The notes below the pieces were generated by a model. The model made no database searches. It saw nothing but the letters and a program-made list of their open reading frames with translations, and had not been told where the DNA came from. This document shows positions 12,129 to 25,336 of a stretch of 64,000 nucleotides of DNA, piece by piece. The translations under genes and the position numbers were made by a program. Positions within the stretch are counted from its first letter, which is position 1; each line of letters begins with the position of its first letter. Source of the stretch: a phage; sequence record OM867527.1; one strand, written 5' to 3'.

Positions 12129-15100
12129 TTGAACAGGAATCATGCTATGTCAACATTTGACCGTCTGGCAGGTTTCGCAGACAGCATCACTACTGCTAAG
12201 CAAGTCGATGTCTCTACTGCAACCTCTCGGAAACAAGCTGAACAAGGGCAAAACCCTTTCCAATTAACTCCTCAGAACGCTTACCAATTACAGGCAGGCC
12301 GTGCTGGTAACTTAGGTGCTGGTGCATTTGACCCAGGATCTATTCAGGCAGATTTTACTAATGCCTCCCCTCTTGAAATCATAAATAAGTATGGCAATGA
12401 GCAAGGAATGGGCATTCTCAATGCTCGTGTCAATGCAGCTAATGCTGTTCGTCGTGATTTAACTAAGAGTCGTACATATGGTGAAGCACTTGGTGATACC
12501 CTTTCTGGTGTTGGTCTTGGTGTTGCTAATACCCTTGGGGGCATTGCTGCTCTTGGCACAGGCTTGGTCAATGATAATGCCGGGGCATCCATTGCTTCCG
12601 GTCTTGACTGGTTGAATAAAGGAGTACACAACCTACAGTCTGATGCACTGAATGCTCGCCGTAATGTAGTACAGAACCAGAACGTAATATCTGCTCAGGA
12701 AAACGAGAAACTCTATAAGCAGGATATTGATAAAGGAGAGAGTGAACTCGTTGCTTCTCTGTCTCGTATTGGGCGTGATGCTTATGATTCTGTTGCTAAC
12801 ACTTTGTCCAATGGCATGGCTGCTACAGATGGTCTGGCTGAAGGCGTTGGTTCACTGTTTACTGGTGGTCCACTTATCCGTGGTGTATCTGCACTTGGTA
12901 AAGTAATGGTAGGTGGGGATAAAGCTGTTAAGGGCATTACCTTAGCTGCTGAATTAGGTTATCGTCCTGCACGTATTGCACAGACTGCTGGTCGTGTTGC
13001 TGCACCTGCTATAGCAATTGGTGGTATGGAAGCTGGTGGTGCATACCAACAGACTGCCAATGAAATTATGGAAATGCCATTCAGTGAACTGGCTGCTAAA
13101 TCTCCTGTATACCAACAGCATATTAAAGACGGTCTGTCTCCGGAAGAAGCACGTCGTCAGACTGCATCTGAAACGGGTATCACTGCTGCTGGCTTAACTG
13201 CTCCGGTTGCTGCTCTTACTGGTCCACTGGTATCTAAGTTTGAACTTAACCCACTCAAAGTAGGTTCACTGGCTGGTGCTGGTTCTAACATGCTGCGTGA
13301 GACTGTAGAAGAGGGTATCCAGTCTGGTACAAGCCAGCTTGCACAGAACAAGGCAATTCAAGGTAATGTAGATGCTAAACGTGATTTGCTTAAAGGTGTG
13401 GGTGAACAAGCTGGTCTTGGTGCATTGTATGGCTTTGGTTCTGCTGGAGTTGCTCAAGCTCCTGGTGCAACTGTTAAGGCTGCTGGTGCTGCCGTTGGTC
13501 CTGTTGTACGTACTACCCTGGCTGGTGCTTCTCTGGCTGGTAAGGCACTAGCAAAAGTAGCTTCCCCTATTACTAACATTCTGGTTCAACGTGGGGAAGA
13601 AGTTGCTAAGCGTAATGAACAAGCATCCCCTGTATCAGACGCTACGGTTAATGCTGCTGCACAAGAAGCTACTGCTCAGGCAGAACAAGCACAAGCAACT
13701 GTTCAGGAAGCAGTAGATGCAATGGATATTTCTCCTGAAGAGAAAGCTGCTGCTACCCAGTATGCTGCTGACTTAACTCAGGCAATGAAGTTTGGCCCAG
13801 TAGAACTGGAACAAGCTAGTCCAGTAATCCGTGAAGCTGTTTCTGGTTCCACTAACCGTGTTGAAGCTATTCAGAAGATGGCTGACCTGGTTAATACTGC
13901 TGAAGACCCTAACGTTCAAATGGAAGCTGCAATCCAGATGTATGACAACATCATGTCTATGGATAGCTTCATTAACCGTGACCCAGGTGCATTAGCTAAT
14001 CTGGAACAAGGTTCTCCTGCTGCTAATATTGTTGACCAGTTCTCCGGCCTGATGGCTAACGTTCAGAATACACCTAAGGTGCTCCGTGCATTCCGTGCTA
14101 TCCATTCCATGATTCAGGAACAGGCAGAAGCAGGTAAACTGAAAGCTACTGAAGAAGCTAACCAAGCCCAGGCAAATAATATTGCTATGGCTGCTGATAT
14201 GTCTCCAGAAGTACTGGATGCAGACTCAGTGAACATGGTTCTGAAACATGCAAGTGAAGGTAAGATTACGCTGGGGAATCGTCAGCGTGCTGCCCTGCAA
14301 TCTGCTGCTGCTCTATTGCAAGGAGCACGAGAATTTGACGCTAAAGCAGAAGAACTGGGCTTACGTCCTCAAGACATTGTTAGTAAACAGATTAAAACCG
14401 ACGAATCTCGTTCTAATGAAGGCCAGTACTCTGCGTTGCAACATGCTAAACGCATTCGTTCTGCGTACAACTCTGGTAACTTCGATTTGGCTTCCGCTTA
14501 TCTCGACGACTTTATGAAGTTCGCCCAGCACATGCAGAATAAGGTCGGAGCGTTGAATGAGCATCTGATTTCGGGGAATGCGGATAAGAATAAGTCTGTC
14601 CATTATCAGGCTCTTACCCCCTCCCGTGAATGGGTACGTAGTCGTACTGGCCTCGGTGTCAATCCGTATGATACCAAGTCTGTTAAGTTTGCCCAGCAAG
14701 TAGGACTGGAAGCCAAGACCGTAGCTGATATTGCTAACGCACTTGCTACGGCTTACCCGGAGCTTAATGTTTCTCATGTGAAAGTTACCCCATTGGATTC
14801 ACGTCTGGACAAGCCTGCTGCTCAGGTAGTTAAAGAGTTCCGTCAGGGCAATCTTGATGCTGCTCAATCCCAACAGACCAATGAACCAGTGAATCAGGTT
14901 GATGAAACTCCTGTTACGAAACAGGAACCAGTTACCCCTACTGTACAGACTAAACCTTCTGTTAGTGAAGCTGTTAAAACAGAACCTACTATTAAAGAGT
15001 CTAAACCACAGACTGTAAAAGAACCTGAGAACCAGTCTGAAAAACAGGATAATGTTGATCAGTCTACTGAATCTGAAAGAGATGCTTATGTGAAAGAGAA

Positions 15101-18100
15101 TACTATTTCACAAGATACTCTTAATAAGTACGGTGACCGTAAAGAGAGTCCTTGGCTTTTTGCAGATGGTACTGTTGTTGGTTCCAATGGTGACCACATT
15201 AGCCTGTCTGATGTATTTGGTCATGATGGTTATCGTGATATGTCATTAGATACAGGTGCTATTCGCTCTACCTTCTACAAAGGAAGCGAGCAACCATTTG
15301 TATCATTGCAACTGTTTGATAATCAGAAACTGACTACTGAACAATTCAATACTGTTCAATCATTCGTAGAAGCAAACAATGCACTGATTCAGGTTGGTGT
15401 AGATACGTCTGGACGTAATACCAATAATGTTGAGAAGCAAGAAGTATCACTGGCTCAACTGAAAGCAGACTATACAGTTGGTGGTAAACCACTCTCTGAG
15501 ATGGAAACAGTGTTCCCTGTCTATAACAACGAAAAAACACCGAACCAGTTCCTTAAAGCATTTTCTCTACCAGAAGAACCTAAGTCCCGTACCATTGGTT
15601 CTGAATCCCCTTTGACTGATGTTAAGAAAGCACTGTCTTCTGCTGCCCGTTTCGAAGCATTCACTCAAAAAGAAAATAACGCTCTCACAAGTGATGTGAT
15701 TAAGCGTTATCAGGACTTAATGGGGTTTGGTGAAACTCTGAAGACTACTTTATCTGATCGTCTGGCTAAGTTCCTTGCTAACAAGAATGTTGGTAAACGT
15801 TTTGCAGAAGGTACTGAGGCTAACCGCTGGGTAGGTGGTAAGTTACTTAACATCGTTGAGAAAGATGGCGACACCTTTAAGTTCAATGACCAATTGTTAG
15901 AGACTGCTGTACTTGCTGGTTTGCAATGGCGACTTACTGCTACCCAGAATGCTGCTGTTAAAGACATGAAAGGCGTAGCTGCCATTACTGGTGTGGAGGC
16001 ATCCTTGTTACCTGAAGGTATCCTTGCAGAGTTTGAGAATGCTCAGACCCTGGTTGAAGCTACTAACTCACTGGCTCAAAAGATTGAATCCTATTGGGGT
16101 TTGAATCGTAATCCTAATGCACCTCTTGGTTATACCAAGGGTATCCCAATGGCAATGGCTACAGAGATTCTGTCTTCTCTCATTGAGATGGGTGAAGTTA
16201 AAGAGTCCATGCTGGATGTGTCTGAAATTGATCCAGAATCTAATAAGACTGTTGGTCTGTATACCATTGAGAAGTTAGATGATAACGATGCCATTAACAA
16301 ATTCCCTACTGCTATTGAGGAAGCTGTCCTCCTAGAACCAGAAGAGAAGATGTACTTTGGTGATGACATTCCTTCCGTGGCTCAAACTCAGTTACGTAAC
16401 CCAGCTGTTAAGAATACCCCGGAACAGAAAGCTGCTCTTAAAGCTGAGCAGGCTACTGAGTTCCATGTACATATGCCGATGGTTAACTTCTATGAAGCAT
16501 TGGGTCGTGACAACATTCTGGAGCTGATGGGTGCTGGTGCTCTTAATCCTGAACTACTGAATGTGAATACCGCTAAATCTCTGGAAGGTAAAAACCTGTC
16601 CGTGTCTATGGCATATGATTCCTTGTTTGGTGTAATCAACCAGATTAAGGAACAAGAGAATGGTTTGGATACACCTATTCACTACGGTTACAACATGACC
16701 CGTGTAGGTCGTATGCAGATGCTTGGTAAGAACAACCCACAATCCAGCAAGCTGGTACGTGAAGCAATCCTACCAACTTTCTCTACCATCGACTTAAGTA
16801 ATGAAAACAGTCAAACGTTCTCTGACTTCCAGCTTGGACTGGCTCAGGCATTGGGTATCAAAGTTCATAAAATGTCCCGTGAAGTTATGTCGGATGAGCT
16901 GACTAAAGCTCTGGAAGGTAAATTGAAACCTGCCGTTGATATGATGGTTGAGTTTGATAAGTCTGGGCACTTACCTACTGATGCTGTGGATATTCTGAAG
17001 ACCTCTTTGGGTAATGATAAATCATTTGTAGCTCTCATGGCTCTGATGGAGTATGCCCGTTACTTGAACAGTGATGACCGTGCTAACTTTAATACCCCAC
17101 TGTACGTTGAAGCTGATGGTGTAACCAACGGACCAATCAACGCAATGGTATTAATGACTGGTGGTAAGTTCACTTCAGATTGGATTAAGAATACTGCTAA
17201 AGGTGGTTTGTTCTTCGGTAAAGCTGGCAAGACTATGAACGAGCATCATTCACATGAGGATAGTGTTGACCTGTATGAAGCATCCACTAATAGCCTACAA
17301 CAGGCACTGAACGAATTACGTAATACTTATCGTAACAACGTTCCTGTTACGAACCAGATGAAGCATCTCCAGAAGTTAATGGACCTATTCATTAAAGACT
17401 TCAATCTTAAGGAAGATGGTACTCTGGACCTGAAACGCGGTATCGCTAAAAACCCACTGACTATCACCATCTACGGTTCAGGTGCTCGTGGTATTGCTGG
17501 CAAGATGGTAAGTGCAATTACTGATGTCATCTATGAACGCTTCAGTGACGTTCTGCAAGCCCGTGCTGCTGACCCTAGCATTTCCCCGGCTATGGCAATG
17601 TTTGGTAAGGAGGCTGCATCTGAAGCTGACGCTCAGGCTATGCTGGATACTTTCCTTACTTCTATGGAAGCACTGACTGGTAATGTTCCGGTTATGCGTA
17701 AAGGCGAGCTGTCTATTCAGCAGGTAGAAGGTGCTCTGACCGGTAAATTAGACCCTCAGAAGTTTACTGTATCCGGTAATGCTCTGAAGAACTTACAAGA
17801 GAACATGCTTCACTTGTTCGTTGAGCCAATGCGTACTGGTATCCGAAATACTGTTGGTGAAGGTCTGATGTACTCTACTGAAAATTTGCAGAAGGCTACT
17901 CAGATTCAATCACTGGTATTGCAGGATATGTTCCAACAGGCAGTACAGGCTAAACTGGCAGAAAAAGAAAAAGACCCAACATGGAAGAAGGGTGATTTCT
18001 TAACGCAGAAAGAACTGAATGAAATCCAGGAATCATTATCTCCACTGGCTCCAATGATTGAGACTGGTTCCCAGACTTTCTATATTGCTGGTAGTGAGAA

Positions 18101-21100
18101 TACTGATGTTGCTAACCAAGTACTGGCTACTAACTTAGATGACCGTATGCGTGTGCCAATGAGCATTTATGCTCCTTCACAGGCAGGGGTTGCAGGTATT
18201 CCATTTATGACCATCGGTACTGGTGATGGCATGATGATGCAGACGCTTTCTACTATGAAAGGTGCTCCGAAGAATACCCTGAAAATCTTTGATGGTATGA
18301 ACATCGGTATCAATGACATTACTGATGCAAGCCGTAAAGCCAATGCGGCTGTATATACTTCCTGGCAGGGTAACCCTATCAAGAATGTTTATGACTCCTT
18401 CTCTAAGTTCATGAAGAATGTAGACTTCAGCAAACTGTCCGATGAAACCAAACAGGCTATTGCTAAGTCTGCTCTGGAATACGACCAACGTGAAGGTGCT
18501 ACTGATGACCTGTTGCGTGTTGGTGCTGAACAGATTGAACGTAATCTGCGTAACATTGCTCTGGGTGTGGATATTCGTCACAAGGTAATGGACCGGGTAC
18601 AGGTTACCGTTGACCAGATGGCTGCTGTTGGTGCTCCTTATGTGAACAACGGTAAAATCTCTCTGGATGGTCTGACTATTGACCAGCAGGTAGCTAAGCT
18701 GAACGAACTGTTTGATGCTGAATTAAACAAGCGTCGTGATGCAGTACGTGCTTCTAAAGCAGAGCCAACGAAGGTAGAACCAGCGAAAGAAGTGCCAGTG
18801 GTTGAAGTACCTGCTATGGAGAAGGTTGGTCGTGTACTGAAATCTGGTGTACGTCTACTGTCTAATACTGCCATTACTAAACTGGCTAAAGAGATGTCTC
18901 CTGAGCAGCAAGCAGTATTGAAAGAGATACAGAAATCCCTTGTTGCTAAAGACTACAAGGTTGTTTACGGTACACCTTCTCAACTGGATGCTTACGCTAT
19001 TGAGAAGAACATTACTCGCCCAGCACCAGAAGATATTGAAGCTGCTGAAGCTGGTAATGCATACGGTTGGACTAACTTTGAAGATAAGACCATCTACTTA
19101 GTCACCCCTTCCTTAGAGACTCTGGTTCATGAATTAGTACATGCTTCTACTTTTGAATCTGTACTGGCTCACTATGAAGGTACTCCTAATGAAGCTGTCC
19201 AGAACATTGAAGACCTGATGAACCAGTTCCGTACTCTGGATGTTAAGGATGAATCTCCGGCAGTACGTGAAGCATATGCCGATGCACTGAATACCATTAA
19301 TGGTCATCTGTCCAATGGCTTCATTGAACCAGCAATGGCTAAAGCTGCTGCTCTGAATGAGTACATGGCCTGGGGTTTAACCAACCGTGAACTGATTAAT
19401 AAGCAGAAGAAAACCACTGCACTTAAAACTATGGTTCAGGCTGTATATGAGGCGATCAAACGTCTAGTATTTGGACGTAAGAAAGCTCCGGCTAATGCAG
19501 ATGATATGTTCTCTGGCTTACTGTTTAACTCTGCTGTAGTAATGCGTGGACAAGCTCCTACTGCTGCTGTAGCCAAAGACACTACCCTGTTCCATAACAA
19601 AGCATACGGTAACAATACTCGTCTGGAAGAGTTAGGGAAAACCTTCGATAAGCTGATTACTGACTACATTGGTTCAGAACCAGTACAGCAAGTAATTCGT
19701 AAAGGTAAGTTCTCTGATGCAGTAGTAAATGCAACTAAAGTAACTCGTGATGTTCAGGCTCATGGCTTCACCATGAATATGCAGGAACAACGCCTCTTTA
19801 CTAACATTGTTGCTGCACTAGCTACCGAGGCTGCTATTAACCCTGCTGCTATGGCTCGTGCACAGGAATACTACACACATGTTACTAAGAACCTGACCGT
19901 TGAAGCGTTCATGGCTGACCCGGATAGTACTAACCCTGCTGACCGTTACTATGCACAGCAGAAGTTTGACACCATCATGGGTGCTAACAACATTGAGTTT
20001 GATGCACAAGGTCGTTCTTCCTTACTGCCTACCTTTGTTGGTCTGGCAATGGTAAGCGAAGAGGTACGTAAGGTACTGGCTGACATTCCTGTTATGAAAG
20101 CAGATAAGAAATCAGGCAATACTGTTGATGCAATGCTGACTAACATCGGTACTGCTGCAATGGCTAGTCTGAATGCTCGTGTAGCAGGTGATACTAAAGC
20201 CACTAACGTACAGGAAGGTATGGATGCACTGGCTCAGACAATCATGCAGACCAGTCTTAATGCAGAGTCCTTCTATGATTCCGTTGCTACTCCTACCGGT
20301 AATGCTATTGACCGTGCTAACCAGTATCTGGTGGATTCTATTGATGCACTGTCTACCCGTGCTTTGGAAGGTGCTCGTGAAGTTGCAGCTAATACCAAGA
20401 ACCCACTGGTCAAAGGTGCTGCTCATGCTGCACAACTGATAGCTGCTATTGCTACAGAGAAGAATGGTTCAATTGTAGCTGAAGGTGTTATGGCTGCAAT
20501 GAACCAGGGTAGAGTATGGCAACCTTTCCATGACCTGGTTAATGACATAATCGGACGTACTAAGAGCAATGCTTCTGTATATGATTTGATTAAGGCAGTA
20601 CGTGCACAGGTACAGGCTGACCGTCAGCAGTTCCGTGAACACTTGCCTACCACTATCGCATCTAAGTTCAGCCGTAAGCTGACTAATGATGAGTGGAAAG
20701 CAATGCATACCGGTATGGGTAAAACTGACTTAGCTGTTCTGCGTGACACCATGTCTCTGGCTGAAATCCGTGACCTGTTGACTGACCAGAAGATTGTTGA
20801 CCGTGAGGTTAATAAACTGGAAGCAGATTTGCAGAAACAAGCAGGACGTAACTGGCCTCTGATTAATCGTAAATCTAAGCAACTGGCTCAGTACATGATT
20901 AACGGTACGGTCGGAAATAACCTGCTGCGTAATGCTACTGCAATTTCTCGTTTACTGGGTGAACGTAAGACTACACGTTCTGTTGTAGATGTAGCTCAAC
21001 TGGATAAACTCATTACCCTGTATGCACTGGAAGCAATGAATAAGACTGACCGTGAGATGTTATCTTCGCTGGCTCAGACAGAAATTGAAGGCATGGACTT

Positions 21101-22931
21101 TGCTACTTCTTACCTGGTTGGTCAGCGTAAGGATGAAATGGCTAAAGCCAAGTCTGATTCTCGTGCAACCATGAACCAGTACAAAGGGTATATTCCTGGT
21201 GAAACTAAACAAGGAGTTAACCTGATTGTTGCTGAAGATAGTCAGTTTGCTGATTTGATTGAGAAGTCTTATGTGCGACTGGGTACTTATCAGGGTAGCT
21301 CTGCTAACCGTGGTTCAGCACGTAGTTACTACTTTGCACCAGTACAGGCACAGGCTCCATTCTCGCAGGGTATTCTACAGAACGTTCGTAATACTGCTGG
21401 TGGTGTAGACCTTGGTACAGGCTTTACGATGGGAACCATGGTAGCTGGTCGTATTACTGACAAACCTTCCGTAGACCGTATCACTAAAGCACTGGCTCGT
21501 GGTGAACGTGGTAATGAACCACTGCTGCCTGTATATGATGCCAATGGTAATGTGGTTGCTTACGAGCAATCCATTGACCCTAACATGCTGAAGCACATTG
21601 AAGGTGAGAACCATCTTGCTCGTGCAATTGGTGTATGGCGTGGTCGTCAGGTGGAAGAAGCTAAGGCTCAGCGTTTCAACGATATGCTGATTGAGAATCT
21701 GCATAGTATGTACGAGAACGACATTAAGATGTCTGCTTCTAATAAGTCCCAGTACGTTAACCTTCTTGGTTCTAAACTGGACCCAGTAACTGCTGATGCT
21801 CTTAAACTGATGAACAGTGAAACTCGTCAGAAAGCGGAAAGTCTGTTTGGTCCGGGTGAGCTGTGGGTACGTCGTGACATGCTCAATGATGCTCTAGGTT
21901 ATCGTGCAGCTTCTGTTGGTGATGCCTGGTCTGGTAATTCTCGTTGGTCACCAGAAACACTAGATACCTTCAAGAAAGCTATGTTGGGTGTCTTCGGCAA
22001 CCGTGCCTATAAGTATGTAATGGGTGGTGAGAACCTGGTTCAGAATTTAGTTAAAGAAGCTAAGACTCTGATTGTAGTTAAATCGGTGGTTGTACCTGCT
22101 GTTAACTTCCTGGCTAACCTTTACCAGATGGTTGCTCGTGGTGTACCTGTTAAGAACATTGCTAAGAGCATCCCACAGAAAACTGCTGAGATTAACCAAT
22201 ACCTGAAATCTCGTCTGCGTCAGGTAGATGCAGAAGCAGAGTTACGTGCAGCTACTAACCCGAACCAGATTCGTAAGCTGAAGGCTGAGATTCAGTCCAT
22301 CACAGATAGCCATAAGCGTTTGAGTATCTGGCCTCTGTTGGAAGCTGGTGAGTTCTCTTCAATTGCAGATGCTGGTATTGGGCGTGATGACATCCTGATT
22401 ACTGAAGGTAAGATTCAAGAATACATGGGTAAGCTGGCCGATAAGCTGCCTAAATCTGTACGTAATGCAGGTCGTTATGCACTTATCACTAAGGATACTG
22501 CTCTGTTCCAGGGTATCCAGAAGACGGTTGAGTACTCTGACTTTATCGCTAAAGCAATCATCTATGATGAACTGACTCAGCGTAAAGGTAAGACTCGTGA
22601 AGAAGCACTAGGACGTGTAACGGAAGAGTTTATTAACTACGACCGTTTACCGGGTCGATTCCGTGGGTATATGGAAAGTGTTGGTCTGTTGTGGTTCTAC
22701 AACTTTAAGATTCGTTCCGCAAAAGTTGCAGTGTCCATGATTCGTAATAACCCAGTACATGCTGCTATGGCTATGTTGGCTCCAACTCCTACCATGTTTG
22801 GTAACGTTGGTCTGCCTATTCAGGACAACATCTTTAGTATTGCTGCACAGGGCAATCTCGGTTACTCCTTCGGATTCGGGCAAGGCTTACGTGCCCATAC
22901 CCTGAACCCTTGGCTCAACCTCACTAACTAA
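12129..22931 (+). CDS. virion-encapsidated RNA polymerase (vRNAP, N4 gp50-like), 3600 aa
   Basis: Single 10.8-kb ORF. T7-like single-subunit RNAP motifs read directly: TRVGR (R1528), motif A EADGVTNGPINA (D1663), motif B RGIAKNPLTITIYGSG (R1770, K1774, Y1782), motif C KIFDGMNIG (D2055). All five align at one constant offset (+1104) to the N4 mini-vRNAP residues R424/D559/R666/K670/Y678/D951 as I recall them. Confidence 0.92.
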   Translation: MNRNHAMSTFDRLAGFADSITTAKQVDVSTATSRKQAEQGQNPFQLTPQNAYQLQAGRAGNLGAGAFDPGSIQADFTNASPLEIINKYGNEQGMGILNARVNAANAVRRDLTKSRTYGEALGDTLSGVGLGVANTLGGIAALGTGLVNDNAGASIASGLDWLNKGVHNLQSDALNARRNVVQNQNVISAQENEKLYKQDIDKGESELVASLSRIGRDAYDSVANTLSNGMAATDGLAEGVGSLFTGGPLIRGVSALGKVMVGGDKAVKGITLAAELGYRPARIAQTAGRVAAPAIAIGGMEAGGAYQQTANEIMEMPFSELAAKSPVYQQHIKDGLSPEEARRQTASETGITAAGLTAPVAALTGPLVSKFELNPLKVGSLAGAGSNMLRETVEEGIQSGTSQLAQNKAIQGNVDAKRDLLKGVGEQAGLGALYGFGSAGVAQAPGATVKAAGAAVGPVVRTTLAGASLAGKALAKVASPITNILVQRGEEVAKRNEQASPVSDATVNAAAQEATAQAEQAQATVQEAVDAMDISPEEKAAATQYAADLTQAMKFGPVELEQASPVIREAVSGSTNRVEAIQKMADLVNTAEDPNVQMEAAIQMYDNIMSMDSFINRDPGALANLEQGSPAANIVDQFSGLMANVQNTPKVLRAFRAIHSMIQEQAEAGKLKATEEANQAQANNIAMAADMSPEVLDADSVNMVLKHASEGKITLGNRQRAALQSAAALLQGAREFDAKAEELGLRPQDIVSKQIKTDESRSNEGQYSALQHAKRIRSAYNSGNFDLASAYLDDFMKFAQHMQNKVGALNEHLISGNADKNKSVHYQALTPSREWVRSRTGLGVNPYDTKSVKFAQQVGLEAKTVADIANALATAYPELNVSHVKVTPLDSRLDKPAAQVVKEFRQGNLDAAQSQQTNEPVNQVDETPVTKQEPVTPTVQTKPSVSEAVKTEPTIKESKPQTVKEPENQSEKQDNVDQSTESERDAYVKENTISQDTLNKYGDRKESPWLFADGTVVGSNGDHISLSDVFGHDGYRDMSLDTGAIRSTFYKGSEQPFVSLQLFDNQKLTTEQFNTVQSFVEANNALIQVGVDTSGRNTNNVEKQEVSLAQLKADYTVGGKPLSEMETVFPVYNNEKTPNQFLKAFSLPEEPKSRTIGSESPLTDVKKALSSAARFEAFTQKENNALTSDVIKRYQDLMGFGETLKTTLSDRLAKFLANKNVGKRFAEGTEANRWVGGKLLNIVEKDGDTFKFNDQLLETAVLAGLQWRLTATQNAAVKDMKGVAAITGVEASLLPEGILAEFENAQTLVEATNSLAQKIESYWGLNRNPNAPLGYTKGIPMAMATEILSSLIEMGEVKESMLDVSEIDPESNKTVGLYTIEKLDDNDAINKFPTAIEEAVLLEPEEKMYFGDDIPSVAQTQLRNPAVKNTPEQKAALKAEQATEFHVHMPMVNFYEALGRDNILELMGAGALNPELLNVNTAKSLEGKNLSVSMAYDSLFGVINQIKEQENGLDTPIHYGYNMTRVGRMQMLGKNNPQSSKLVREAILPTFSTIDLSNENSQTFSDFQLGLAQALGIKVHKMSREVMSDELTKALEGKLKPAVDMMVEFDKSGHLPTDAVDILKTSLGNDKSFVALMALMEYARYLNSDDRANFNTPLYVEADGVTNGPINAMVLMTGGKFTSDWIKNTAKGGLFFGKAGKTMNEHHSHEDSVDLYEASTNSLQQALNELRNTYRNNVPVTNQMKHLQKLMDLFIKDFNLKEDGTLDLKRGIAKNPLTITIYGSGARGIAGKMVSAITDVIYERFSDVLQARAADPSISPAMAMFGKEAASEADAQAMLDTFLTSMEALTGNVPVMRKGELSIQQVEGALTGKLDPQKFTVSGNALKNLQENMLHLFVEPMRTGIRNTVGEGLMYSTENLQKATQIQSLVLQDMFQQAVQAKLAEKEKDPTWKKGDFLTQKELNEIQESLSPLAPMIETGSQTFYIAGSENTDVANQVLATNLDDRMRVPMSIYAPSQAGVAGIPFMTIGTGDGMMMQTLSTMKGAPKNTLKIFDGMNIGINDITDASRKANAAVYTSWQGNPIKNVYDSFSKFMKNVDFSKLSDETKQAIAKSALEYDQREGATDDLLRVGAEQIERNLRNIALGVDIRHKVMDRVQVTVDQMAAVGAPYVNNGKISLDGLTIDQQVAKLNELFDAELNKRRDAVRASKAEPTKVEPAKEVPVVEVPAMEKVGRVLKSGVRLLSNTAITKLAKEMSPEQQAVLKEIQKSLVAKDYKVVYGTPSQLDAYAIEKNITRPAPEDIEAAEAGNAYGWTNFEDKTIYLVTPSLETLVHELVHASTFESVLAHYEGTPNEAVQNIEDLMNQFRTLDVKDESPAVREAYADALNTINGHLSNGFIEPAMAKAAALNEYMAWGLTNRELINKQKKTTALKTMVQAVYEAIKRLVFGRKKAPANADDMFSGLLFNSAVVMRGQAPTAAVAKDTTLFHNKAYGNNTRLEELGKTFDKLITDYIGSEPVQQVIRKGKFSDAVVNATKVTRDVQAHGFTMNMQEQRLFTNIVAALATEAAINPAAMARAQEYYTHVTKNLTVEAFMADPDSTNPADRYYAQQKFDTIMGANNIEFDAQGRSSLLPTFVGLAMVSEEVRKVLADIPVMKADKKSGNTVDAMLTNIGTAAMASLNARVAGDTKATNVQEGMDALAQTIMQTSLNAESFYDSVATPTGNAIDRANQYLVDSIDALSTRALEGAREVAANTKNPLVKGAAHAAQLIAAIATEKNGSIVAEGVMAAMNQGRVWQPFHDLVNDIIGRTKSNASVYDLIKAVRAQVQADRQQFREHLPTTIASKFSRKLTNDEWKAMHTGMGKTDLAVLRDTMSLAEIRDLLTDQKIVDREVNKLEADLQKQAGRNWPLINRKSKQLAQYMINGTVGNNLLRNATAISRLLGERKTTRSVVDVAQLDKLITLYALEAMNKTDREMLSSLAQTEIEGMDFATSYLVGQRKDEMAKAKSDSRATMNQYKGYIPGETKQGVNLIVAEDSQFADLIEKSYVRLGTYQGSSANRGSARSYYFAPVQAQAPFSQGILQNVRNTAGGVDLGTGFTMGTMVAGRITDKPSVDRITKALARGERGNEPLLPVYDANGNVVAYEQSIDPNMLKHIEGENHLARAIGVWRGRQVEEAKAQRFNDMLIENLHSMYENDIKMSASNKSQYVNLLGSKLDPVTADALKLMNSETRQKAESLFGPGELWVRRDMLNDALGYRAASVGDAWSGNSRWSPETLDTFKKAMLGVFGNRAYKYVMGGENLVQNLVKEAKTLIVVKSVVVPAVNFLANLYQMVARGVPVKNIAKSIPQKTAEINQYLKSRLRQVDAEAELRAATNPNQIRKLKAEIQSITDSHKRLSIWPLLEAGEFSSIADAGIGRDDILITEGKIQEYMGKLADKLPKSVRNAGRYALITKDTALFQGIQKTVEYSDFIAKAIIYDELTQRKGKTREEALGRVTEEFINYDRLPGRFRGYMESVGLLWFYNFKIRSAKVAVSMIRNNPVHAAMAMLAPTPTMFGNVGLPIQDNIFSIAAQGNLGYSFGFGQGLRAHTLNPWLNLTN

Positions 22932-23480: not shown

Positions 23481-23510
23481 CAAATAAAAAAGTCCCTCCG
23501 AAGAGGGACT
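23481..23510 (-). terminator. rho-independent terminator (minus strand)
   Basis: Minus-strand reading: AGTCCCTC-TTCG-GAGGGACT followed by TTTTTTATTTG. Confidence 0.55.
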
Positions 23511-23737
23511 TAGTAGCTTTAACGCAGCTAACGAGGCTAGGCCAGTTAACTATTACCACCGGTGCTTGTACCAGCAAACAGGATTGATAGTCCGATAATA
23601 GTTAACTGTAATTGAGCATTATAGTCTGCTCATACTCACACCGTTAGGTATGTTTACAATAACTAGAGTGCCGGACTGTCTCACCGGCATTGTCTTTAGA
23701 GTGCAATGCAATCAGGACTATGTTCTCTATTAATGAG

Positions 23738-23822
23738 TACCCACTACTGGATTTGAACCAGTGACCACAGACACCTTGTTCTCTCGAAGCTTTCCTGCGC
23801 TCTACCACTGAGCTAAGTGGGC
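23738..23822 (-). tRNA. tRNA-like gene with non-canonical anticodon region (possible pseudo-tRNA)
   Basis: Minus strand: 7-bp acceptor stem GCCCACT/AGTGGGT, canonical D-arm GCTC-AGTGGTA-GAGC, T-arm ACTGG-TTCAAAT-CCAGT. The 35 nt between D- and T-arms cannot be folded into a 5-bp stem / 7-nt loop anticodon arm in any register. Confidence 0.4.
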
Positions 23823-25336
23823 ATAAATAGGCGAGTCATGCCAGACTTTAACTGGCTCCTTCTTCGCAATCCTTACATACCCCTACATAATTATTGCGTT
23901 AAGCTTTTTTGTTTAAGTTTAAATGAAGGCGTTCTTGCTGACTCATAATTAGGTTTCCTACTTGCATGGGCTTCCACCATATCATGACGAGTTTGAGACT
24001 GCGGAGCGTCTACCTCTATGCTGTTACCAGCCACCGGTAAACCGGCGTTCTGTGGTCCATCGTCTTCAATCATGTTGTCTTAACCATATAGGGATTCAGG
24101 CAACTATGACGGCAAGTAGGAAATTGGTATTAATGTCTTGGTTTCATGAAGATTTTAGGTTAAGTGTACCAAGACATCAAATAAGGTGGGCGTTTGACGA
24201 ATGACTAGTTCGTTACTACCCGTTTGCCATAAGTACCTGGCGACTTCAAATAACGGGGGATGGAATCGAACCACCAGTATTAAGTCTTATTCGTGCACCA
24301 AGCACGCTAGTGGTTTTACCCACCGGAGGGAATCGAACCCCATCTACTTCACCAGACCCGTCTTAATTCTTCCAATTCAGGGTAGCACTGTCGAGGTGTG
24401 TTCTTTGAATGCCAGGAAACATTTAAAGATACAGTGCTACTTTGAATTAATTGCCAGGGATTTCACCTGGCTCCATCTGTTTTTATAGTCACTCAGATAT
24501 CGTCTGGACTTTGATAGTACAACCTATCAAAGAGTACACTAAGCACAGGTAGCTACCCTGCCGTCTTCTCCACCTACACCGGCTACAGTGTAAACCTCCG
24601 CACGTTAGCCTAATGTACTCATTGATAGGATGTCATAATAGGGGAGGGATGACGAGTCCCTCTTTACCCTATAATTTAGTTTACATGTAAGACCTAACAT
24701 CTCGATGCTGGATGAATAGCTTAATGAACTATCCGACATTATTGGTTAATGTTGTGCTCAACACGAGCGTTAGTTGATAAGGGATCTGAAGCCTTATCCT
24801 AAAGATACTAACCTTTGGGATATAGCCTAAGATTCAGAAATGGCCTCTATAGGGAGAGGCCATTGATTAACCCGAATGTTGCTTTACATTTGCTGTGATA
24901 ACCCATTCTTAAAATAGTCTACCTGACGGATGGGCATAAACCCTAGCGTCAGTGCCATACGGCAAAGATTAAGTTAAGAATGGTTATGATAGGAGTTCCT
25001 ATCTCAAAGGATTCTAACAGAACCCTTCACGATATTAACTATTCAATGTGAAATTCTTTGTTTCCTTCAACAGGTTCTACATCCAAGAAAAAGCTAACTT
25101 TTCCACTTAGTTTAGATTGAACCAATGGACTGGGGAGAGTATTCCAATCCACTGGTTCTGTTGTTGTTACTCTGGCGGCTTGTCACCACCGTTTTTATCA
25201 CTGAGTTTCCAAAGTATAAGCACAGTGATGATAAATGCTATGTATGGAGCCGACACGTCCAGAATCCTGATAAGCAATAGCATCAGAATTACGAACACTA
25301 CCACAAATAGCAGCAGCTTCTGAGCCACCTACCAGA

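Follow-up and report, generated by a model that had tools for sequence, protein, structure and literature searches.

The reading we lean towards for a small gene on the minus strand of the phage sequence examined here is that of a non-decoding RNA with a tRNA chassis that presents a conserved hairpin as cargo. An anticodon loop is missing from it; its place is taken by a short hairpin that is near-invariant across unrelated phages, thus making codon reading unlikely and suggesting that the tRNA shape serves to display the hairpin. The region that looks odd for a tRNA is the conserved and portable part of the element.

The sequence analysed (record OM867527.1; hereafter the window, i.e. the whole stretch of 64,000 nt) belongs to Escherichia phage HK2, an N4-like phage. 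On its minus strand, positions 23738-23822 (85 nt) read GCCCACU-UA-GCUC-AGUGGUA-GAGC-G-CAGGAAAGCUUCGAGAGAACAAGGUGUCUG-UGGUC-ACUGG-UUCAAAU-CCAGU-AGUGGGU-A, with the following parts:

23738..23822, minus strand: entire tRNA-shaped RNA gene, 85 nt; 5' end at 23822, discriminator A at 23738; Rfam tRNA match of 53.9 bits
23816..23822, minus strand: acceptor stem, 5' strand GCCCACU; pairs with 23739-23745
23799..23813, minus strand: D arm GCUC-AGUGGUA-GAGC; A14, G18 and G19 present; stem invariant across all homologues
23794..23797, minus strand: cargo-arm lower stem, 5' strand CAGG, at the anticodon-stem position; pairs with 23768-23771
23772..23793, minus strand: 22-nt cargo interior AAAGC-UUC-GAGA-GAA-CAAGGUG; of fixed length, occurs on two chassis
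23782..23785, minus strand: apical GAGA, a GNRA-type tetranucleotide, with UUC and GAA on either side
23768..23771, minus strand: cargo-arm lower stem, 3' strand UCUG; pairs with CAGG at 23794-23797
23763..23767, minus strand: variable loop UGGUC; C48 able to pair with G15, from the sequence and the Rfam alignment
23746..23762, minus strand: T arm ACUGG-UUCAAAU-CCAGU; stem invariant across homologues
23739..23745, minus strand: acceptor stem, 3' strand AGUGGGU; discriminator A at 23738, CCA not encoded
23490..23511, minus strand: intrinsic-terminator-like hairpin and U tract, about 230 nt downstream of the element; ends the minus-strand transcription unit

The element lies within a 230-nt non-coding stretch preceding the terminator-like hairpin, which has 9 pairs followed by TTTTTATTT. 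When the surroundings were scanned against PHROGs, the neighbours of the element matched only families of unknown function, and no family was returned for the small neighbouring ORFs, including a 54-aa ORF that overlaps the element.

The tRNA body is complete, with the acceptor stem, the D and T arms and the bases of the L-shape contacts intact. The Rfam tRNA family (RF00005), with a gathering score of 29, matched the element at 53.9 bits, well beyond chance (E = 8e-9 over the entire window); the alignment passes over 24 nt of the anticodon region, and this match was the sole Rfam hit in the 64 kb. Conserved tRNA bases are found at U8, A14, G18, G19, U54-U55-C56 and A58. In an alignment of nine distinct homologues, five of the seven acceptor pairs change on both sides and 100% of the cells remain paired, as compared with only 31-47% when, as a control, the alignment was slid by 1-3 columns. 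Folding of the whole 85-nt element was no better than that of shuffled sequences (z = -1.3). CCA, absent from the HK2 gene, is encoded 3' of the discriminator in the Vi01, VLCpiP4b and P46FS4 copies. The arms described in an initial annotation of this DNA were recovered as such, namely a 7-bp acceptor stem with one G-U (G1-U72), the D arm GCUC/GAGC and the T arm ACUGG-UUCAAAU-CCAGU, and its length of 85 nt agrees with the sequence; the 35 nt it counted between the arms must be corrected to 36 nt, from D stem to T stem.

The same annotation had stated that no anticodon arm with a 5-bp stem, a 7-nt loop and U33 exists in any register, and enumeration bears this out. No solution for such a 5-7-5 arm was obtained in the HK2 allele or in three others, admitting either no intron or any single contiguous intron, 0-2 lead bases and a short or long variable loop, with at least four of five stem pairs required and G-U permitted. 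ARAGORN, as well, reported neither a tRNA nor a tmRNA at the locus in default mode; when introns were allowed its only model was an implausible Pro(AGG), having A33 and an intron of 15 nt at position 29/30. Across nine option sets (introns, lowered thresholds, tmRNA, mitochondrial) the outputs were artefacts, being either circular wrap-arounds or the same Pro(AGG) model with A33. The combination expected of a canonical tRNA (5-bp anticodon stem, 7-nt loop, U33, purine 37) is thus absent. The initial description of this region as unfoldable holds insofar as no anticodon arm can form, and goes too far in that a 4-bp stem, CAGG:UCUG, does form around a conserved 22-nt interior. Since an anticodon arm is impossible and the tRNA body is fully intact, a non-decoding tRNA-like structure is favoured among the options initially listed, and we consider the element very probably non-decoding. 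The gene should be left out of decoding-tRNA counts.

In the anticodon loop's place stands a 30-nt arm, CAGG-[22 nt]-YCUG, with the consensus CAGG-ARAGY-UUC-GNRA-GAA-CAAGGUG-YCUG. Scans anchored on the flanks only returned an interior of exactly 22 nt each time. Eight interior alleles were seen in the loci examined, with variation confined to positions 31, 34, 39, 40 and 51, and a scan leaving the four loop positions open found that all scaffolded copies have GGAA, GAGA, GGGA or GAAA, i.e. GNRA. The innermost pair of the lower stem varies from G-C to G-U. For the upper arm, RNAalifold and energy evaluation give three alternative pairing registers separated by no more than about 1-3 kcal/mol, and the cargo-arm fold is beyond the reach of covariation because the element is near-invariant outside the acceptor stem. 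A pair R31-U50 within the arm fitted the A/G variation, but was discarded as the U31 allele speaks against it.

Permissive Rfam scans over the arm gave no significant likeness to any family besides tRNA and listed no supporting family such as SRP RNA. Partial resemblances were considered, as leads only, to a UCG anticodon loop (CUUCGAG), the sarcin-ricin loop (CGAGAG), the ATP aptamer loop, SRP RNA domain IV (a GGAA cap above internal loops), the k-turn and CsrA sites (CAGGA, ACAAGG); none of these motifs suits all alleles. The constancy of the arm makes it, in our judgement, probably the selected functional part of the element.

BLAST with the 85-nt element retrieved 140 records at a coverage of at least 80%. 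The arm-bearing phages (about 140 records) belong to the Ackermannviridae, to two N4-like genera and to a 111-kb phage, and the matches include Kuttervirus (Vi01, SFP10, Det7 and others), Gamaleyavirus (HK2, pSb-1, Bas96), Kaypoctavirus VLCpiP4b and EP_H11. Sequence lying beyond the chassis has diverged freely, unlike the cargo. Copies are found in or beside tRNA arrays, or within long untranslated stretches of operons, all on the strand of the adjacent tRNA genes and often 1-6 nt away from them. This shared strand, together with the G-U pairs of the element (G1-U72 and G29-U52), indicates a strand-specific element acting at the RNA level. In species-representative bacterial and archaeal genomes (one per species) the exact core pattern had no match, and a degenerate core pattern had 43 matches, near the 35 or so expected by chance, all of them without the flanking stem. 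Part of the nucleotide identity across families could stem from recent horizontal transfer and not from long purifying selection. GenBank labels for the copies are inconsistent ('tRNA-OTHER', pseudo, Val, Pro, Leu or unannotated).

The same locus is occupied in the sister phages Bp4 and ECBP1 by an ordinary 74-nt tRNA-Ile(AAU), whose acceptor stem, T arm and flanks are identical to those of HK2, indicating that HK2 carries a swapped interior. Historically, then, the initially suggested tRNA with an insertion is an apt description, as sister phages have a normal tRNA there; as a description of a gene able to decode it fails, no excision restoring a decoding arm. A cargo-free parent tRNA of the same body was not found in IMG/VR, nor was a close relative found for the EP_H11 tRNA region. 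The locus is a variable hot spot, and a relative phage has an HNH homing endonuclease gene nearby.

A second cloverleaf chassis, unrelated to the first, bears the cargo arm too, again where an anticodon arm would be; it is found in lambdoid phages, Klebsiella phages and prophages of E. coli. This chassis has a 7-bp closing stem (with three compensatory pairs) continuous with a 5-bp T-like stem, i.e. a 7/5 acceptor-T geometry, without D or T loop consensus. Three cargo alleles are common to both chassis. In other phages the second chassis holds unrelated inserts of about 40-200 nt, for which Rfam scans returned no known family. Of 5426 complete E. coli genomes, 924 had a match to the second-chassis RNA, as did about 145 phage records; it represents a widespread, unannotated cloverleaf RNA with swappable inserts. 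For RNAs in which the same arm stands at the anticodon position of a cloverleaf and is conserved across phage families, as found here, we propose the term 'tRNA-chassis cargo RNA', a class put forward in this analysis and not an established family.

The alternative that best survives these observations, although we regard it as unlikely, is a cis-acting processing or punctuation element, in which the tRNA shape would be an RNase P/RNase Z cleavage signal for a polycistronic transcript or tRNA array and the arm a secondary RNase or transcription-factor site, with no role in trans. It would account for copies always lying in or beside tRNA arrays or long untranslated operon stretches, as the HK2 copy does ahead of its terminator, and for the geometry of the second chassis, which is of the kind recognised by RNase P. 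However, a cleavage signal alone needs no invariant 22-nt interior, the occurrence of an identical interior on two chassis is left unexplained, and the ordinary tRNAs at the Bp4/ECBP1 locus would already punctuate the transcript.

A Y RNA-like (YrlA-type) tRNA mimic, whose arm would bind the Ro60 orthologue Rsr and modulate Rsr/PNPase RNA decay during infection, is considerably less probable. YrlA is likewise a tRNA mimic with a protein-binding module at the anticodon-stem position and is present in some phages (PMC4201824), and a sub-threshold Rfam match of 33.9 bits was seen over the VLCpiP4b copy. That match, however, is a composite of two genes, its T arm coming from the adjacent tRNA-Gln and its D arm from the element, and a similar one over an ordinary tRNA-Asn/tRNA-Thr pair marks it as a dimeric-tRNA artefact; in the window the YrlA model (RF02553), whose gathering threshold is 69 bits, reached only 12.7 (E = 5). 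As to the Rsr motif, GNCGAAN0-1G, the GAAA allele has something loosely like it in UUCGAAAG, first G apart, but the HK2 allele reads UUCGAGAG, and the GAGA, GGAA and GGGA alleles do not match. Moreover, no TROVE/Ro60 domain was detected in the 17 ORFs of at least 314 aa in the 64-kb window of the 70-kb genome, and the topology of YrlA differs, as it ends on its module and has a closed acceptor.

Slightly less probable still is a dead tRNA gene, whose anticodon arm was ruined by an insertion or failed recombination and whose remnant persists neutrally. The labels 'tRNA-OTHER' or pseudo in several GenBank records, with Val, Pro and Leu inconsistently assigned in others, and the normal tRNA at the same place in sister phages would suit such a history. 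Yet the supposedly broken part is the most conserved one, in about 140 records from several families and on the second chassis besides; its interior is fixed at 22 nt, its cap is always GNRA, and compensatory changes keep the acceptor stem perfectly paired. The pseudo-tRNA initially offered as one option is contradicted by this conservation of the 22-nt interior in about 140 phage records and on a second, unrelated chassis.

We give very little credence to a decoding tRNA matured by removal of a short intron, through a bulge-helix-bulge endonuclease and ligase or through a phage or host activity such as RtcB. The 13-nt excess over a standard arm does fall in the range of short tRNA introns, and ARAGORN in intron mode returns a model, but that model has A33 and places the intron inside the stem, and no single excision yields a 5-7-5 arm with U33 in any allele enumerated. 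The bulge layout, on inspection of the sequence, is not bulge-helix-bulge (two 3-nt bulges staggered over a 4-bp helix were not found); an excess of only 13 nt leaves no room for a group I core; no intron family is among the Rfam matches at the locus; and the large ORFs of the window yielded neither an RNA ligase nor a kinase domain. To our knowledge, no tRNA-splicing endonuclease has been described in bacteria. Equally improbable is a DNA-level element, either a recombination site or a homing-endonuclease target, lying by chance in tRNA-like DNA: the variable hot spot, the HNH homing endonuclease gene near it in a relative and the clearly recombination-exchanged interior would agree with it, but the G-U pairs make sense only in RNA of the minus strand, the orientation is always that of the neighbouring tRNA genes, and the variation respects the GNRA cap and the stem pairing of an RNA.

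Coming back to the non-decoding RNA with its displayed hairpin, the element would share a transcript with the tRNA genes beside it, or form a terminated unit of its own. As with engineered tRNA scaffolds in E. coli, host tRNA enzymes (RNase P, 3' trimming, CCA addition, T/D-loop modification) would then excise and stabilise the RNA by way of its tRNA body, leaving the protruding cargo arm as the presumed working part. The invariant asymmetric internal loop under the GNRA-type cap is a putative sequence-specific binding site, and the bound factor would be one that E. coli, Salmonella, Shigella and Klebsiella share. The likeliest target would be a host RNA-binding protein or nuclease, titrated or redirected by the RNA, which may act as a host-factor decoy. 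That the RNA acts in trans through host-factor binding is a serious possibility, if one falling somewhat short of probable. The patchy, horizontally exchanged distribution fits an accessory role in host takeover or counter-defence.

The presence of tRNA genes in phages is commonly put down to codon supply or, more recently, to evasion of tRNA-cleaving defences. The element described here keeps all the tRNA features recognised by the cell save the part that reads codons, where a conserved hairpin stands instead. We therefore put forward, quite tentatively, a modular 'RNA display' system in enterobacterial phages, in which two independent tRNA-shaped chassis, only one of them a true tRNA body, would be excised and stabilised by the tRNA machinery of the host and carry interchangeable cargos at the anticodon position; the HK2 arm might be a sequence-specific decoy that draws off a defence nuclease or an RNA-binding protein conserved in enterobacteria, and the 40-200-nt inserts might be other counter-defence or host-takeover cargos. 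If the HK2 element works as proposed, it would be evidence that phages exploit the tRNA-processing pathway to deliver small functional RNAs.

No described Rfam family or publication that we found matches the HK2-type cargo-arm RNA, and neither the element nor the second chassis turned up in full-text literature searches; a preprint on Pas sRNA deals with different RNAs. In phage T4, the genes of RNAC and RNAD lie among the clustered tRNA genes and their transcripts are processed together with the tRNAs, which sets a precedent for passengers other than tRNAs in such phage arrays; we know of no sequence kinship between them and the HK2 element, nor of a full cloverleaf with a replaced anticodon arm in either. 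They are small phage RNAs whose function is still unknown (PMC9697503). In tmRNA, the tRNA-like domain has an acceptor stem and a T arm, but a long helix connecting to further functional parts stands in for the anticodon arm (PMC4201824), an arrangement resembling the present one. However, tmRNA lacks a D stem and has G3-U70 for alanylation, a tag reading frame and pseudoknots, whereas in the HK2 element pair 3-70 is C-G, the arm is only 30 nt long and the tmRNA mode of ARAGORN was negative.

Some phage tRNAs have changes in the anticodon loop by which defences that target tRNAs are evaded or neutralised (PMC10264068; PARIS, PMC11464382; retron-Eco7, bioRxiv 10.1101/2023.03.15.532788). Like the HK2 element, they are accessory tRNA-cluster genes of patchy distribution, and their role is in counter-defence and not in codon supply; they differ in that they decode with a normal 7-nt loop, whereas the HK2 element has no decoding arm. 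YrlA (RF02553) likewise mimics a tRNA without decoding, has tertiary contacts as well as D and T arms, is encoded in some cases by phages (PMC4201824), and bears its protein-binding module where the HK2 element has its cargo arm. YrlA is, however, circularly permuted, ending on the Rsr-binding stem with its acceptor closed by a loop, unlike the HK2 element; it also adjoins an rsr (TROVE) gene, a domain not detected in the 17 large window ORFs of HK2, and carries GNCGAAN0-1G, to which the GAAA allele alone comes close. The same architecture is found in the engineered tRNA scaffold of Ponchon and Dardel (PMC3753655), in which the anticodon stem-loop is swapped for an insert and the chimera, recognised and protected by the tRNA machinery, is processed and stable in E. 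coli: both retain acceptor stem, D arm and T arm, with a hairpin in place of the anticodon stem-loop. The scaffold is man-made, whereas the phage design is natural, with one fixed 30-nt insert on the tRNA body and many on the second chassis; were our reading true, the phage element would be the natural counterpart of this laboratory tool.

The 2.5 kb around the element, an 85-nt tRNA-shaped RNA gene, were 100% identical to the record of Escherichia phage HK2, PP514361.1 (record coordinate + 258 = window coordinate), HK2 being an N4-like podophage of the Schitoviridae, genus Gamaleyavirus. Encoded on the minus strand, the element occupies the far end of the leftward gene block, directly before the convergent virion RNA polymerase gene:

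23738-23822, minus strand: the element, 85 nt, reading 5' to 3' GCCCACU UA GCUC AGUGGUA GAGC G CAGG AAAGC UUC GAGA GAA CAAGGUG UCUG UGGUC ACUGG UUCAAAU CCAGU AGUGGGU A
12129-22931, plus strand: 3600-aa ORF, virion RNA polymerase in related records
23511-23490, minus strand: strong terminator-like hairpin with U tract, about 230 nt downstream of the element

The acceptor stem with one G-U pair, the D arm and the T arm are as described in the initial annotation, and the bases of the tRNA L-shape are complete (U8, A14, G18, G19, G15 with C48, U54-U55-C56, A58). The Rfam tRNA model scored 53.9 bits on the element (gathering score 29), skipping 24 nt of the anticodon region, and was the sole Rfam match in the whole window. 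That annotation had also held that the gap between the D and T arms admits no anticodon arm with U33, which was borne out by enumeration, the sole correction being a gap length of 36 nt and not 35. The enumeration admitted no intron or any single contiguous excision, 0–2 lead bases, a short or a long variable loop and a single stem mismatch; in HK2 and three other alleles it gave no anticodon arm with U33. A tRNA-like gene lacking a foldable anticodon arm was confirmed by both the Rfam score and exhaustive enumeration.

A tmRNA was rejected, ARAGORN returning neither tRNA nor tmRNA at the element in default mode, and no canonical cloverleaf with a standard anticodon when intron and tmRNA modes were included. 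Intron mode offered a single model, Pro(AGG), whose 15-nt intron falls within the stem and which has A33; it was discarded, and an intron-containing tRNA was rejected on this and on the enumeration of single excisions. The pseudo-tRNA option raised initially falls short, since the 30-nt hairpin replacing the anticodon arm (CAGG-[22 nt]-YCUG, here cargo arm) is conserved and acceptor-stem pairing is kept.

BLAST with the 85-nt element retrieved 198 phage records, with coverage of 80% or more in 140, and the matches form four groups. Over 100 Vi01-like Ackermannviridae (Kuttervirus) carry it in a tRNA array, 6 nt after tRNA-Ser, where it is labelled 'tRNA-OTHER' (flagged pseudo), Pro or Leu or is left unannotated; the copies of Gamaleyavirus pSb-1 and Bas96 are annotated tRNA-Val. 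In the Klebsiella N4-like phage VLCpiP4b it lies downstream of Pro, Ser and Gln tRNAs, and in the 111-kb phage EP_H11 it follows tRNA-Gly by 5 nt. Across GenBank the labels thus range over tRNA-OTHER (pseudo), tRNA-Val, tRNA-Pro, tRNA-Leu, part of a hypothetical protein, or nothing, making the tRNA counts of element-bearing phages inconsistent. Among nine aligned distinct copies two acceptor-stem types occur (GCCCACU/AGUGGGU and UGCUUCA/UGAAGCA), with 5 of 7 pairs changed on both sides and all cells still paired; sliding the structure by 1–3 columns left only 31–47% paired. In this alignment the D stem, T arm and odd arm hardly vary, and CCA is encoded after the discriminator in several copies. 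Judged from sequence conservation across phage groups, a dead gene is rejected. The G-U pairs and the strand shared with neighbouring tRNAs are RNA-level, strand-specific signatures.

The sister phages Bp4 and ECBP1 have a 74-nt tRNA-Ile(AAU) at this locus, at a distance of 317 nt from the gp48-like gene. It matches HK2 exactly over its first 12 nt, its last 29 nt and both flanks and differs in the D loop and anticodon arm. Since these ends match the Bp4/ECBP1 tRNA and nt 8–77 share 93% identity with the Kuttervirus copy, the HK2 gene is a mosaic with an exchanged interior, presumably acquired by recombination through the conserved tRNA ends. An IMG/VR scan found no cargo-free parent sharing the element's body, and the EP_H11 tRNA region had no close relative. 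The HK2 intergenic region is a gene-exchange hot spot: tRNA gene number and type vary among sister phages, and the close relative vB_EcoP-ZQ2 has an HNH homing endonuclease gene inserted there.

The neighbourhood shows further features. Small ORFs around or over the element gave no family matches; Pfam matches of other window ORFs were to portal, capsid, family A DNA polymerase, primase, helicase, phage-type RNA polymerase and terminase. The 3600-aa ORF is called 'DNA polymerase' in the HK2 GenBank record, probably a mis-annotation, versus virion RNA polymerase (gp50) in St11Ph5, Bp4 and Bas96. The 256-nt non-coding spacer between element and terminator (23485-23740, minus) folds at -80 kcal/mol (z = -3.8, 0/200 shuffles as good); Bp4, ECBP1 and Bas96 share its conserved 5' part, and its hairpin GCCGG-UGAGACAGU-CCGGC (about 23670-23688, minus) resembles the T-like hairpin of the second chassis described below. 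A conserved hairpin, GCCAG-UUAAAGU-CUGGC (23840-23856, minus), lies 17 nt upstream of the element 5' end, with the same sequence in Bp4 and ECBP1, and could be a signal for processing or one associated with a promoter. Sister phages also carry A34-anticodon tRNAs, Ile(AAU) and Cys(ACA), the latter flagged pseudo in one record:

Bp4 (locus L003): 1872-1946 and 2648-2726
ECBP1 (locus L004): 1315-1389 and 2092-2170

In bacteria A34 is otherwise not known outside tRNA-Arg(ACG), so these tRNAs may be unusual or non-standard too.

The cargo arm has the consensus CAGG-ARAGY-UUC-GNRA-GAA-CAAGGUG-YCUG. IMG/VR scans with fixed flanks and free interior (5–35 free nt in the tRNA body, 16–28 in the second chassis) returned exclusively 22-nt interiors. 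Eight interior alleles occur among the loci examined, varying only at 31 (A/G/U), 34 (C/U), 39 and 40 (A/G) and 51 (G/A). When the four apical positions were unconstrained, every scaffolded copy had GGAA (31), GAGA (13), GGGA (11) or GAAA (5), the sole non-GNRA matches being two CGCC devoid of flanking stem or any chassis. In one-genome-per-species bacterial and archaeal representatives the exact arm core had no match, and a 35-bit degenerate pattern had 43 (about 35 expected by chance), all lacking the flanking stem. The innermost pair of the lower stem alternates G-C and G-U. Above this 4-bp stem, three fold models lie within about 1–3 kcal/mol across alleles, and no covariation discriminating them was seen in the homologues:

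Model 1: GNRA-capped 3-bp helix (UUC/GAA) atop a 5/7 asymmetric internal loop
Model 2: RNAalifold register (A-U, Y-G, U-A, U-A, G-C, 6-nt loop)
Model 3: single-sequence minimum-free-energy register

An R31-U50 pair is disfavoured by the allele with U31. The near-invariance of unpaired positions may point to sequence-specific recognition of the arm rather than a purely structural role.

The same 30-nt arm, in the same three commonest alleles, is mounted on a second, unrelated cloverleaf, UGUGGUG-AAU-GCGCA GGCUGA UGCGC-[arm]-AUACAA-GCCGG AGAUCAGCG CCGGC-CACCACA, so that a near-invariant arm is portable between two chassis, one of them an intact tRNA body in which no anticodon arm is possible:

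L018 (HK633), 2486-2575: second chassis; also in loci L019, L020, L010, L022-L027 and L121-L123

RNAalifold predicted a cloverleaf in which a 7-bp closing stem (three compensatory pairs) is continuous with the 5-bp stem of a T-like hairpin (GCCGGAGAUCAGCGCCGGC); its other parts are a spacer of 3 nt, a D-like hairpin of 5 bp (GCGCAGGCUGAUGCGC), the cargo arm and a 6-nt variable region. The 7/5 acceptor-T geometry is shared with tRNA, whereas the D/T loop consensus is absent, and Rfam scans gave no family. In lambdoid phages HK620 and HK633 this chassis lies between the Q/PR' region and the holin gene; with the arm it also occurs in the Klebsiella/E. coli siphophages RCIP0093, ZCKP8 and swi2 and in many IMG/VR contigs. 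Matches to it came from 145 phage records and from 924 of the 5426 complete E. coli genomes searched (806 places on chromosomes, 239 on plasmids), just 100 of these genomes covering at least 80% of the query. Overall, its variable inserts at the anticodon-arm position measure about 30–200 nt. Most matches comprise the two ends only, the middle being unrelated inserts of about 40–200 nt, none matching an Rfam family (Klebsiella phages 6991, Magnus, UPM 2146 and Kp4885-1, Aeromonas phage 62AhydR11PP, an Stx2k phage, E. coli prophages and one phage-plasmid). The chassis is often found within tRNA arrays: in ZCKP8 two tRNAs follow it at a distance of 1 nt, in Kp4885-1 two precede it, and it lies between tRNA-Thr and tRNA-Ser in a 92-kb phage-plasmid also encoding the Tad2 anti-defence protein. 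Sequence diverges freely outside either chassis, and the arm shows no such divergence.

In phage-plasmid NZ_CP028585.2 (L122), whose tRNA-rich region holds Tad2 and TerB genes, a shorter element immediately follows the chassis (2700-2760), with the same leader and stem (GAGUGCUCUUACCGUU-GUGAUG) and a different, compact interior. Near the tRNA arrays of several Klebsiella phages, sub-threshold Rfam matches to permuted/alphaproteobacterial tmRNA models (best 41.5 bits, gathering score 47) could be two-piece tmRNA-like genes or further tRNA-like noise:

L021 (VLCpiP4b): 457-679
L020: 2178-2286
L022: 309-417
L023: 249-450

On sequence grounds, the element is read as a non-decoding tRNA-chassis RNA carrying a conserved cargo arm, patchily distributed, horizontally exchanged and confined to Enterobacteriaceae phages and prophages; these structural and evolutionary claims are well supported. 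By analogy with the engineered tRNA scaffold, the tRNA shape would bring in RNase P and the enzymes of 3' trimming, CCA addition and modification, which would release and stabilise the RNA. The arm would then serve as a ligand recognised by its sequence, its partner most likely being a protein conserved among enterobacteria; we infer a ligand or decoy function. Aminoacylation appears unlikely by established tRNA identity rules (reviewed in PMC9976931): no identity set is common to the two lineages' acceptor stems, the 3-70 pair is C-G and not G-U, a long variable arm is lacking, and the anticodon is required by most synthetases.

A full-text literature search found no published description of the element or of the second chassis, and the element looks like part of a broader, undescribed set of cloverleaf-mounted phage RNAs. 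Recent reports of phage tRNAs escaping anticodon nucleases, PARIS (PMC11464382) or retrons deal with decoding tRNAs (also PMC10264068; bioRxiv 10.1101/2023.03.15.532788). YrlA membership was rejected, the window scoring only 12.7 bits (E = 5) and showing no TROVE gene, the usual neighbour of YrlA, among its 17 ORFs of 314 aa or more; a 33.9-bit match over the VLCpiP4b copy stitches the tRNA-Gln T arm to the element D arm, and an ordinary tRNA pair matches similarly. The closest functional analogues are YrlA-type bacterial Y RNAs, tRNA mimics with an Rsr-binding module (PMC4201824), the tRNA-like domain of tmRNA, RNAC and RNAD of T4, two RNAs without an explanation so far (PMC9697503), and the engineered tRNA scaffold, in which an insert replaces the anticodon stem-loop and the RNA is released and stabilised by tRNA-processing enzymes (PMC3753655). 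We group the element with tRNA mimics whose functional module occupies the anticodon position.
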